Below, piece after piece: positions 1 through 62,199 of a stretch of DNA of 64,000 nucleotides. Position 1 is the stretch's first letter. The number at the start of each line of letters is the position of its first letter. The notes under the pieces are model-generated. The model was not told the origin of the DNA. It ran no database searches and saw only the letters and a program-made list of their open reading frames with translations. Position numbers and translations under genes: made by a program. The stretch covers positions 240,064,001 to 240,128,000 of the forward strand of contig OZ024742.1 of assembly GCA_964016885.1 (NCBI GenBank). Direction: 5' to 3'. Origin of the DNA: Eledone cirrhosa (taxonomy: Eukaryota).

Positions 1-1569
1 TCATCATCATCATCAACGTTTAACGTCCGTGTTCCACGCTTGCATGGGTTTGGACGGGGGTAGTCCCACTTGAGGCAAGAGTGATTGTCTTGCTCGCATA
101 GGATTGTCTGGCAGGTTTTCTACAGTTGGATGCCCTTCCTAACACCAACCACATTTACAGTGTGGGTCTGGGAGGTTTTTACCGTGTTGCCTACACGGCC
201 ACATTACAGCGTGGACTGTGTGTTTTTTTGTCGTGACACCTACACGATCTCATTTGTTTCGGCCCGGATGGCGCGGCACCAACATAACTTTACATAGGAC
301 GGGGTGGTGTGGATGGGGTGGGGGTGGTGGGGCGGGGTGTATTTTGTTAGAGATGCCTACTGGCAAGGCGGGTCTTCTCTGTTACTGAGTACCGCCAAAG
401 GTCACGGTCCAGTGACATTGTCTTGGAGAGGTGTAAGTGTGTGAGGTCGGAGTTTATCAGCTCGTCCCAGGTTTTTCTAGGTCTGCCTATTCCGTGGCTA
501 CCGTCTATCTTTATTGCCCTGCACTTTGTTATACAGCTATCGACTTTCATGCGCATCACGTGTCCATACCAACGTAGCCTTCTCTCGAGTAAACAACATC
601 TGATCCCTCTTATCTCTAATTTTTTCCTTAGTTCGTTTATGGTTTGCCGTTCACGTATATTACTGTTACACATCCAGCGGAGCATGCAAGCTTCGTTCCT
701 CTCTAGTCTGCGTATATCCTCTGCACACAATGCCCAGGTCTCACTGCCATGCAACATTGCTGTTCGTATGCAGGCATCGTACAACCTGCCTTTCATTTTT
801 AGGGAGAACCCTTTAGCAGCTAATAGTGGTATAAGCTCTCTGAACTTTTTCCAACCAGTTCTGACTCTAGCTACAGTACTTTCAGAGCACCCTCCCCCAC
901 TGCTGATTTTATCGCCCAGGTAACGGAAGCTGTCCACTATTTCTATAGAACCCTCTGCGCAATTGAAAGAGCTAGTATTGTGTGGGCACTTGCTGCTACT
1001 TATTGCACCAGAACACCGGCCACATGTAAAATCTATGTTCTTAGTTAGCTTACCTGTGATCCCACTACATCTTTTATGCACCCATACTTTGCATTTAGGA
1101 CACAAAATGGAGTTTCTACCTACGCCTTTCCTACACACCGAGCACGACCATTTCCCAGAAGGGACCGCCGCCTTGTTTTCTTTCCTACAAACTAGAACTT
1201 TGGTCTTAGCCAGGTTAATTTTAAGTCCTTTTGACTCTAGGCCGTGCTTCCATGTTTGGAATTTCTTCTCTAGCTCGGCCATTGATTCCGCTATGAGTGT
1301 CAGGTCGTCTGCGTATAGGAGTTCCCATGGGCAGCCTGTCTTGAACTCCTCTGTTATAGCCTGAAGGGCAATAATAAATAGTAGGGGGCTGAGAACAGAG
1401 CCCTGATGGACGCCAACTTTTACGCTAAACTCTTCACTATATTCGTTGTTAATTCTAACCTTGCTGACTGTTTCTTTATACATGGCTTGTATAGCCCTCA
1501 CAAGCCATTCGTCAACGCCTAGTTTTCTAAGAGCCCACCAGATAATGGAGCGGGAGACTCTGTCGAAGG
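1..1569 (-). mobile_element. RTE-clade LINE, family A, 5'-truncated (RT C-half, PHD finger, 3'UTR, (GAT)n tail)
   Basis: Frame open from [14 protein letters not shown] through [22 protein letters not shown] and [11 protein letters not shown] to 347. (CAT)n tail at 1-15. The 5' end abuts a TA array. A ~28-bp deletion removes the usual KTRLT* stop. Confidence 0.95.
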
Positions 1570-1696
1570 TATGTATGTATATACATATATATATGTATGT
1601 ATATATATATATGTATATGTATATATGTATATATATATATGTATGCATATATATACATACATATATACATATATATATATACATACATATATACAT
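1570..1696. repeat. (TA)n microsatellite with mixed TG and CA interruptions
   Basis: Direct reading. Confidence 0.95.
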
Positions 1697-1864
1697 ATGA
1701 AATGCAGTTTGGGTTTGTGTCAGGCAAAAGTACCACAGACGCTCTTTTCATTGTACGACTACAGGAGAAGTACCTAGCTAAAAGTAAACCCCTATACTTA
1801 GCCTTTGTCGACTTGGAGAAAGCCTTCGACAGAGTGCCCCGTTCCATTATCTGGTGGGCTCTTA
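1697..1864 (+). mobile_element. Isolated internal RT fragment of RTE family A
   Basis: Encodes [37 protein letters not shown], matching ~4381-4551. Both ends lie in TA repeat. Confidence 0.92.
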
Positions 1865-2740
1865 TATACATATATACATATATATATATACATATATACA
1901 TATACATATATATATATACATATATACATATATATATACATATATACATATATATATACATATATACATATATATATATATATACATATATATATATACA
2001 TATATACATATATATATATATATACATATATATATATACATATATATATATACATATATATATATATACATATATATATATACATATATATATATATACA
2101 TATATATATATACATATATATACATATATATATATATATATGTATACATATATATATATATACATATATATATATATATATATATACATATATATATATA
2201 TATACATATATACATATATATATATATATATATATACATATATATATATATACATATATATATATATACATATATATATACATATATATATATACATATA
2301 TATATATATATATATATATATACATATATACATATATATATATATACATATACATATACATATATATATACATATACATATACATATATATATACATATA
2401 CATATATATATATATATACATATATATATATACATATATATATATATATACATATATATATATATACATATACATATATATATATATACATATATACATA
2501 TATACATACATACATATATATATACATACATACATATATAGAAACATATATATATACATACATACATATATATACATATATATATACATATATATATATA
2601 TATATACATATATATATATATACATATATATATACATATATATATATATATACATATATATATACACATATATATACATACATATATATATATATATACA
2701 TATATATACATATACATACATATATATATATATACATATA
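1865..2740. repeat. Interrupted (TA)n/(TACA) array
   Basis: Direct reading. Confidence 0.97.
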
Positions 2741-59865: not shown

Positions 59866-61440
59866 ATCATCATCATCATCATCACCGTTTAATGTCCATT
59901 TTCCTTGCTTGCATAGGTTAGACGGGTTGTTCACATCAAGAGATATGTCTGGCCAGTTGGTCACACCGTACCTTGCTCAGATAGATCTGTAAATTTGGCG
60001 GTGATTTTTACAGCTGGATGCTTTTTCTAGCACCAACCACATTTACACTGTGGAACTAGATGACCCTGTTATGAGAAGGGACAGGTTATTGGCCGTGCCG
60101 TACCCTGCTCAACTGAACCAATAGTTTGGGAACCACAACCACATTTACAGTGTAGAACTGGATGGCGCCATTATGAGGAGGGATAGGCCAGTTGGCTGCG
60201 CCATACCCTGCTCACACCGGAAGTATAGTTTGGGAGCCAAGTGGTCCCACTATGGGGCAGGTCTAGCCAGTTGGCCACATCAAGCCTTACACAAAGTGAA
60301 GCTGTGTTACTGCAAAGTCTGGCCAGATGGCCTTGCTGTACCTTGCACAATATTGGGACTGTTGCTGTAATTTGGGATCTTCGTGGCCCCATTATGATGG
60401 AGGTCTGGCCAGTTTTCCACACTAAGCCTTATTCATAGTAGAGCCCTGGGTGGCGCCATTATGAGGAGGATCTGGCCAAGTTGGCCACACCATAGTCTGC
60501 TCACATCGGAACCATAATTTGGAATCTGGGTGGTGCCAGTATGAGGGAGGTTGGGCCAGTTGGCTACGCCAAGCTTTACTTATAAAGGAGCCGTGTGACT
60601 GGGTGGTCCTAGTATAAGCCAAATCTTGTCTCATGGACACACCATACCTTATACATATGATGTAGCTCTGGCCAGTTGGTCGCACAAAGCCTTGCTCATA
60701 GCGAGGCCCTGGCTGGAGTCGTTATGAGGAGCTGTCCAGTTGGCTGCGTCAAGCCTTACTCATAAAGAGCCATGTTATTGGGTGGTCCTGCTGTCAACTC
60801 ACATTTACAGTGAGGAATCAGGTGGCACCGTTATGAACAGAGTCCAAGGCTGGGTTATTGACATGGGTCTTTTGTCGTATGTTGTAGTGCCAGAGGTCTT
60901 GGTCCTGTGTCATCTCTGTTGGGAGGTTCAGCTGAGCCGGGTCAGCCTTTATTTTTCATCCCACGATTTCCTTCTTGGGTCTTCCTCTTTCAGGGAGGGT
61001 CCTATAATCTCGAGTGCCCTGCACCTCTTTATAGAGCCGTCATCCTTCATGTGCATCACATGTCTATACCACTACAGTTTTCTCTCCTGCACTCACCATT
61101 TGATCCTTGAGTTTCGCTCTCAATTCACTTACATTTTGCCATTCACGGACACTACTTTTACACATACATCTGATTATGTAGGTTTCATTTCTTTCCAAAC
61201 TCTATATATCCTCGGCACACAGAGCCCATGTTTTGCTTCCATGGAGCATTGTTGTGTGCACACAGGCACCATACAGCTTGCCTTTTATCTTGAGTGAGAG
61301 ACCTTTTGTAGTTAGCAATGGCAGTTGCTCCCTGAACTTTTTCCATTCCATCCTTACTCTGGCCACTGTACATTTGGTGCATCCACATCCACATCCACAA
61401 GCTGTCAACTATTTCTATGGCATCCTGTGCAATTGAAGGT
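59866..61440 (-). mobile_element. Older RTE family D fragment with a long, tandemly repetitive 3'UTR
   Basis: Decayed ARVRMEWKKFRE.LPLL..KG.SLKIKGKLY..MLHGS.TWAL at 61200-61400. RTE terminus and (CAT)n at 59866-59930. Confidence 0.8.
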
Positions 61441-61455
61441 GCTTCCTATATATAT

Positions 61456-61620
61456 ATCATCATCATCATCATTTAATGTCGCTCTTCCACGCTAGCATGG
61501 GTTAGATGGGAATTGTCCCACTTGAGGCAAGATTGATCGGGTGACCGTGTCTCACTTATATAGGACTGTATCTGGCAGGTTTTCTACGGCTAGATTCCCT
61601 TCCTAACACCAACCACATTT
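61456..61620 (-). mobile_element. Short 3' end of the RTE-A variant
   Basis: Matches 57250-57411. TA runs on both sides. Confidence 0.85.
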
Positions 61621-62199
61621 ATATATATATATATATACATGACTGGCCTTTTGCAGTTTCTGTCTACAAAATTCCACTCATACAGCATTAGTTAACATGT
61701 GGCTATATTAAAAATCATTTGACCAAGGTGATGCACAGAGGGACTAAGCCCAGATCTATGTGGTTGCAAAACAAACTCCTTAGTCACCCAATCATGCCTG
61801 CTCCCGAATTAGAAGGATAATTGTAATTTGTCATTTGAAAAACAATTCAACTCACAATATCAAAAACATACAGTTACAAATTTGTATCAAACTGTGATCC
61901 TTTAACTTTTTGGGGGGGGCTCAAGAACTTTGAGGGATTTGCTAAATTATTATTTATTGCTAAGATAGAAACTTAACATGGAGTTCTTATACAAAATTAT
62001 GTTGGAAGATTTTGATTTAAATATGAAGCCTTTAACCCTTTTGATATCGCCTCTGGTTCTATGATACAAAACCTATTTTAAAGGATTCCTATTTGAATTA
62101 AACCCTTCCAATATAATTTGATATATGTATGGAACTGCCTGCTTGTGAAATTAACTTGTAAGTGGCTGAGCATTCCACAGATCCCCTTGAATTACAGGT

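Follow-up and report, generated by a model that had tools for sequence, protein, structure and literature searches.

The 64,000-nt stretch of the Eledone cirrhosa genome analyzed here (contig OZ024742.1, forward-strand positions 240,064,001 to 240,128,000; hereafter the window) is crowded with long interspersed nuclear elements (LINEs) of the RTE type and with a short interspersed nuclear element (SINE), S1, many of which adjoin degenerate (TA)n arrays. The arrays lie within 1570..43493 and account for about 26% of the window, whereas their genomic share is 6%, and the RTE-type LINEs and S1 together occupy about 22 kb. The association of these elements with TA repeats is genuine and genome-wide, and it is a preference rather than strict targeting, which probably arises from a short nick motif and pairing of the element tail with its target.

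RTE LINEs and SINE S1 in the window

An earlier sequence-only reading of the window listed about 20 RTE and S1 insertions in both orientations, and 26 such pieces were indeed counted. With a TA repeat at a junction defined as at least 60% TA/AT steps in 20 nt, 19 of the 26 pieces had one at the 5' junction and 14 of the 23 automatically parsed 3' ends had one there, several others showing shorter ATAT. The RTE families in the window are about 67–85% alike by self-comparison. The longest RTE-A copy (2741..6041, +) contains a 5'-truncated APE endonuclease (2741-3440) that lacks its N-terminus, a reverse transcriptase (RT) with a PHD insert, a 3' untranslated region (UTR) and a (GAT)n tail, as judged from Pfam Exo_endo_phos and the list of open reading frames (ORFs), and its coding sequence is interrupted by frameshifts and stops. 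TA lies on both flanks of two further RTE-A copies (6168..7769, +, whose 3' UTR contains a 112-bp tandem duplication; 26727..27494, +), an RTE-B copy (12245..12777, −), a young RTE-B copy (16534..19155, −) that is 98.6% identical to the one at 57414-59615, an S1 copy (22023..22341, −) and an older A-like copy (23320..24746, +). A second S1 copy (19701..20049, −) displays the tRNA-like head, LINE-derived 3' part and (GAT)n tail of this SINE, and a third (38342..38665, −) has short pure (TA)n tracts on both sides. The RTE-B copy at 24764..26260 (+) is internally rearranged according to self-comparison.

A single TA array with a CATATTT-type variant throughout extends over 29158..33998 and is interrupted by RTE-C (29411-30574, −), RTE-A (31075-31543, −) and RTE-B (32067-32666, +). 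At its right end, two short A-type 3' ends stand head to head (33989..34132) with their tails facing outward into TA. At the left edge of the window, an RTE-A copy (1..1569, −) has TA at its 5' junction and a tail that passes base 1 into a TA array; a tail-less RTE-A fragment (1696..1862, +) is inverted relative to it and has about 38 nt of element sequence in common with it. The 128-bp TA stretch between the two changes from TGTA to TACA type midway, and 1-1862 may represent a 5' inversion with a TA filler whose polarity flips. On the right side of the window, a short RTE 3' end (55681..55737, −) occupies a TAT^AC site outside the arrays and shows what looks like an 8-nt duplication, part of which matches the element's own sequence. 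An older A-like copy (56150-57410, +) and a young RTE-B copy (57414-59615, −) meet tail to tail; the latter retains a 636-aa open frame with RT and PHD. An old RTE-D copy (59867-61445, −) and a short RTE copy (61456-61619, −) are set between short TA tracts. Only a few bases separate the paired RTE ends, head to head or tail to tail (33989-34132 and 57398-57423; also at loci L003 and L026).

The LINE proteins combine APE endonuclease, RT and PHD domains (Pfam EN, RVT_1 and PF00628). APE precedes RT in a single ORF; the window copies are broken, but of 23 close relatives of 1,114-1,173 aa, 15 have precomputed EN and RT domains within one protein. The 3' UTR ends in a simple-repeat tail, (GAT)n or (GAAAT)n, at the parsed ends. 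An RT tree grouped these proteins with unlabelled fish and plant proteins at 100/100 support, apart from two more distant relatives. The tree references are unlabelled, and the clade name RTE is taken from anatomy. The 3' part of S1 is related to the LINEs, 117 bp being 91% identical to the RTE-B 3' UTR and the terminal 43 bp matching the RTE-C end at 98% identity, and its head matched Rfam tRNA with E = 0.0025 and 25.9 bits, under the gathering score of 29.

The PHD finger (C4HC3; 58351..58521, −) lies within the RT and was identified by PF00628 above cut-off, by alignment and by matches to PHD structures in PDB, the best of which were the Pygopus and Jade PHD fingers (E about 3e-5). The insert of 55-65 aa is situated between the KTK and FxYLG motifs of the RT and also occurs in the matching parts of other copies. 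In the alignment, all seven close relatives displayed carry it, whereas the fish and plant proteins and the two distant relatives do not; PF00628 was found in 17 of the 23 closest relatives. The insert is common to a lineage of single-ORF LINE proteins of about 1,115-1,170 aa from other assemblies. The predicted fold (pLDDT 80) matched the L1 and R2 RTs, as expected, and added nothing on targeting. A literature search found no description of a PHD finger inside an RTE RT.

A genome-wide TA preference and its probable short motif

Genome-wide figures were obtained from pattern counts over the 2.996 Gb genome, in which the A-type 3' end has 22,579 exact matches. Young 3' ends were defined as four GAT units followed by a non-G base, the B pattern also picking up a longer S1 variant. 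A comparison of flanks with the genomic TA background, as the sequence-only reading had proposed, found them TA-richer than expected: ATATAT directly followed 379/815 young RTE-A ends and 697/1,800 young RTE-B ends against a background of 2.3%, and (TA)5T preceded 4,753 of 21,726 S1 starts (22%) against 1.15%. In an unselected sample of 99 evenly spaced 10-kb regions, which includes ends of all ages, 14 of 60 ends had a TA repeat against a background of 4.9% (p = 9e-7). The enrichment is thus 5 to 20 fold, yet the majority of copies lie elsewhere, the in-array share being 23-25% of unselected ends and 39-47% of young ends. Young copies are associated with TA at least as often as old ones (38%, 29%, 30%).

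Individual loci (70 S1, 30 S2 and 30 A) were all drawn from the first part of C1 and cannot count as an unbiased sample; duplicated flanks, such as the tandem copies at locus L087, were entered once. The sequence-only reading had regarded the other elements of the window as an internal control that mostly sits in ordinary DNA, which did not hold. SINE S2, with 4,685 exact starts in the genome, ends on a TA array in the window (26368..26584, +; 3' end at 26584), and about 60% of its sampled copies (L120-L149) were TA-flanked (18/30 5' ends, 15/26 3' ends). S2 may be the stronger TA seeker; several of its non-array copies show distinct 10-13 nt duplications, and no partner LINE for it was found among the fetched loci. 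TA arrays are also adjoined, here and elsewhere, by a 340-bp element with terminal inverted repeats that is embedded in an array (12891-13230), by fold-back repeats (22367 and 34431) and by a Helitron-like end (22911); the first is presumably a miniature inverted-repeat transposable element, and all three labels were assigned from sequence shape. The TA bias is therefore not confined to the RTE/S1 system. It is family-specific, since SINE S4 with an (ATT)n tail is near background (TA at 5/51 5' ends and 6/89 3' ends) and among 15 assorted elements that share an S1-like head and end mostly in CA, AAC or AAG tails, only 2 are TA-flanked. The S1-like-head SINEs with these tails (L157-L178) have 10-13 nt duplications and lie mostly outside TA.

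That many unrelated repeats adjoin arrays would also be expected if insertion were near-random and arrays merely retained or attracted elements as fragile or unselected DNA, the account given for Drosophila Waldo-A/B in the accessible part of PMC3812793. This passive accumulation is improbable here, considering the near-background behavior of S4, a TA association no weaker in young copies than in old ones, junctions in exact phase with the repeat, and TAT at empty sites far from arrays.

These empty sites were rebuilt from insertions nested in other repeats, giving 34 distinct sites. TAT occurred at the 3' junction in 14 of the 34, against 2.9% in non-array DNA, and in 10 of 30 after dropping four sites with an upstream TA run. 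Among them is GGTAT^RTC in an 18-bp satellite, which S1 has hit repeatedly at the GGTAT site (L256-L266, C1 7.2-9.3 Mb). Tail and target overlap by 2-3 nt, the last AT of the tail coinciding with the AT of the target, as would be expected from base pairing at priming; the junctions are consistent with the earlier suggestion that an AU-containing tail primes on nicked TA DNA.

Sites with such a short motif are concentrated in the arrays. TA-like DNA constituted 6.1% of the first 59 sampled regions and contained 23% of TA, 44% of TAT and 67% of TATA sites, so nearly all of the TA enrichment is accounted for. Counted by eye, the next base was A in 87 (RTE-A) and 74 (RTE-B) of the first 100 listed ends each, and with these shares ATATAT follows about 53% of A and 52% of B ends once the next base is A; the background continuation is 47% (43-50%) after TAT^A and 31% after AT^A. 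The 14/60 unselected ends did not differ from the rate after AT (17%, p = 0.23) or TAT (33.5%, p = 0.10). At the 5' side, AT preceded 17,887 of the 21,726 S1 starts, TATAT 7,863 and (TA)5T 4,753. Most of the TA signal arises within the first few bases from the junction.

Based on these observations, the RTE families and S1 favor TA-repeat DNA about six-fold per base, probably through a short T^AT(A/G) nick and tail pairing. The endonuclease would nick at this site, and the (GAU)n RNA tail would pair with the freed AT end and prime reverse transcription; where the nick falls, the pairing itself and the protein responsible for target choice are inferred. Pre-existing arrays, growing by slippage, are rich in TAT sites and would thus collect insertions in both orientations, from RTE/S1 and from other TA-inserting repeats. 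Direct observations are the enrichment, TAT at many empty sites, a tail-target overlap of 2-3 nt, the shortness of the duplications and the TAT/TATA share of arrays. TA is the target and not an addition. The earlier proposal of a TA insertion mechanism common to the RTE families and S1 stands as far as the shared bias goes; the bias is neither strict nor unique to them.

Several observations limit this reading. Five RTE-tailed copies of the window, all located in its TA-poor right half, lack a TA repeat at both of their junctions, and the claim of TA at both junctions of nearly all insertions is not confirmed; an old copy at 35171..35443 (+) is such a counter-example, and the others are those at 36452-36508, 48943-49174 and 52176-52499 and the short 3' end at 55681-55737. 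No AT was present at 18 of the 34 empty sites, and some overlap the tail as GA, GAA or TGA; with about half of the non-array junctions lacking AT and some pairing in other frames, the motif is preferred and not required. The T stretch that belongs to the published signature, about 10 nt upstream of the cut, did not show up in 25 S1 flanks outside arrays (5/25 vs 14%, p = 0.39). The fit is also partly circular, because a TATA motif is half a microsatellite.

The conditional figures leave a remainder as well. The RTE-A/B continuation of 52-53% slightly exceeds the 47% after TAT^A; given TATAT, (TA)5T preceded S1 in 60% against 52% (48-54%), again a small excess, and given AT, TATAT did so in 44% against 21%. 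Because TAT is not used at many ends, the true expectation lies below 47% and the residual excess may reach about 1.5 fold, giving about 1.1-1.5 fold beyond the 3-4 nt motif. The sequence-only reading had S1 starting precisely at GGAGG against (TA)n. This start needs correction, because AT directly precedes GGAGG in those 17,887 copies, including the nested copy L270 whose empty site has no AT; AT or T is thus probably the SINE's own start, in which case the S1 5' enrichment exceeds the conditional figures. Two S1 copies (L104, L278) carry a second copy of their first 8-12 bases at the 5' junction, a pattern that template jumping would give. In addition, A/T alternation continues in phase out to -20 in the 25 non-array S1 flanks.

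The residual excess and the in-phase alternation, reaching 16-20 nt from the junction, are the best evidence that, beyond the motif, a protein recognizes long alternating TA as cruciform or unwound DNA, or its chromatin via the PHD insert, whose conservation in the lineage fits the idea. Such array homing is nevertheless unlikely. Genome-wide, 53-77% of ends lie outside TA repeat, and S2 and non-RTE repeats show the same association. The TA runs after 3' ends had a median length of 29 bp for the 14 random-region ends and of 36 bp for a set of 72 ends, compared with 58 bp at random TAT sites (p = 0.04 and 3e-4; the run measure ends at interruptions), the opposite of what length-seeking predicts. 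Microsatellite homing comparable to that of Waldo, Kibi and Dong is unsupported, because most copies lie outside arrays and a motif of 3-4 nt leaves only about 1.1-1.5 fold of the excess to be explained. A bolder form, in which a widespread RTE lineage steers nearly blunt insertions into alternating-TA DNA or chromatin by combining the PHD finger, a TAT-cutting endonuclease and the GAU tail, is quite unlikely; if true, it would be a LINE reading its landing site with a chromatin-reader domain, and the PHD insert is a concrete lead for chromatin-guided LINE insertion.

Origin of the arrays and setting of the window

A feed-forward process, in which each insertion duplicates or seeds TA, the target lengthens and the elements create the arrays, had also been proposed, and three tests (duplication length, flank length and age trend) gave it no support. 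Duplication lengths were taken from the 52 of 70 S1 copies with both ends parsed. Their target overlaps are mostly 0-6 nt, and all five of at least 9 nt lie within arrays or minisatellites; S1, the element tallied here, falls short of the 7-15 bp duplication of RTE type, which weakens the match to typical RTE integration and leaves the clade assignment unaffected. The flanking runs are shorter than expected, as given above, and showed no lengthening with age (rho against identity 0.16, p = 0.15). One variant unit is common to the four segments of 29158-33998 across three insertions of three families in both orientations, with TT counts of 11, 24, 23 and 38 against 0-8 in the arrays to their left. 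Pointing the other way, S1 has TA only upstream in 10/52 copies and only downstream in 4, extra letters occur at some 5' junctions, and the TA at 1570-1697 with its polarity switch, a single case, may have been copied during insertion as filler. Array building by the elements is highly improbable on this evidence, and the arrays would instead predate the insertions and have grown through their own slippage.

Array polarity likewise tracks the chromosome and not the element, interruptions being TACA rather than TGTA on the + strand irrespective of element orientation. They are almost all TACA in 1861-33998 and in DNA to the left of it at distances of 94-101 kb (L222-L223) and 0-10 kb (L232). 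This excess in two clusters 85 kb apart amounts to A-to-G on the sense strand of a liprin-like gene, and a transcription-linked mutation bias is possible. In random regions, the polarity of neighboring arrays agreed in 1/5 pairs. Polarity as proof of one ancestral array was rejected, considering that the second cluster 85 kb away has the same polarity. Reads of one sample (three runs, possibly the assembled one) and one RAD run over 55000-64000 contained no listed joint that skips the young RTE-B, the signal being swamped by other copies.

The nesting in the window does not surpass the genome-wide expectation. The per-base preference for TA DNA is 6.0 in the genome sample. Non-element DNA in 1-34200 is 75% TA, and with a preference of 6, 95% of the ends there should fall in TA; elsewhere in the window the TA share is 9% and the prediction 36%, and for the whole window the prediction is 78%. 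Observed were 14/17 in the first 48 kb, 0/6 beyond and 14/23 overall. The six-fold preference by itself predicts dense nesting, and the window would be a TA-rich intron in which such insertion produces it. The term intron, used in the sequence-only reading, is plausible for 1-45273, downstream of a liprin-alpha-like N-terminal coding exon (45274..45513, −) that ends in a GT donor at 45274 (an alignment-free lead with an Atlas feature score of 0.96); no following exon was located.

Other features of the window include long inverted repeats of 34-bp units around a GC-rich core (28057-29157), which had no match among the fetched genomic loci, and a TA-derived minisatellite of 3.7 kb with 20-22 bp units (39811-43493) without an RTE insertion within it. 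Pfam found no family above cut-off in 52 short frames from the non-RTE DNA of the window and no match for its CR1-like and CRE-like pieces, and no hAT element was identified there.

Comparison with known systems

The DNA transposon MuTAnT reportedly accumulates in (TA)n by a chemistry that differs from that of the LINEs described here. Micron likewise accumulates in (TA)n and is a DNA transposon with other chemistry, according to the accessible part of PMC3812793. The same part names Waldo, Mino, Kibi, Koshi and Dong as specific microsatellite LINEs, with TA not among the targets listed. The present elements resemble these in being non-LTR elements within simple repeats; those are described as sequence-specific, whereas most copies here lie outside the repeat. 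The large counts obtained here show how a weak preference of 3-4 nt can mimic microsatellite targeting in a repeat-rich genome, which calls for caution with specificity claims from single loci.

No paper on TA-repeat insertion by cephalopod RTEs was found in a search that was thin on subscription journals and Repbase entries, and the accessible portions of PMC9115989, PMC13282606, PMC4758252 and PMC3849965 contained no such target preference. The octopus RTE-2_OV, compared by its description in the accessible portion of PMC9115989, is similarly an RTE with one ORF, of about 1,110 aa, and a microsatellite at its 3' end; it carries a C2H2 finger, and no PHD or target preference is reported in that portion.

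RTE insertion sites are described as not sequence-specific, with duplications of 6-12 bp, in the available text of PMC2887409. In the available text of PMC6007223 and PMC13295347, RTEs cut at TA with an upstream T stretch, tail-target pairing is proposed, and RTEs are suggested to match the microsatellite environment of their host. The 'Tn-TA' RTEs and SINEs treated there (Bov-B, Sauria SINE, plant RTE and Au SINE) share with the present system APE and RT, a microsatellite tail, a 3' end common to LINE and SINE, a cut at a TA step and the proposed pairing. Unlike them, the elements here have duplications of mostly 0-6 nt against the 7-15 nt quoted, no detected upstream T stretch, a (GAT)n tail, a PHD finger in the RT, and a host so TA-rich that a quarter to half of the copies fall in arrays. 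Because its LINE and SINE copies number in the tens of thousands and differ in their tails, this genome allows a direct test of whether tail or endonuclease governs RTE target choice. Compared with the published TA cut and tail pairing of RTEs, the short duplications and the PHD insert are new, and the system is most likely a known mechanism operating in a TA-rich genome.

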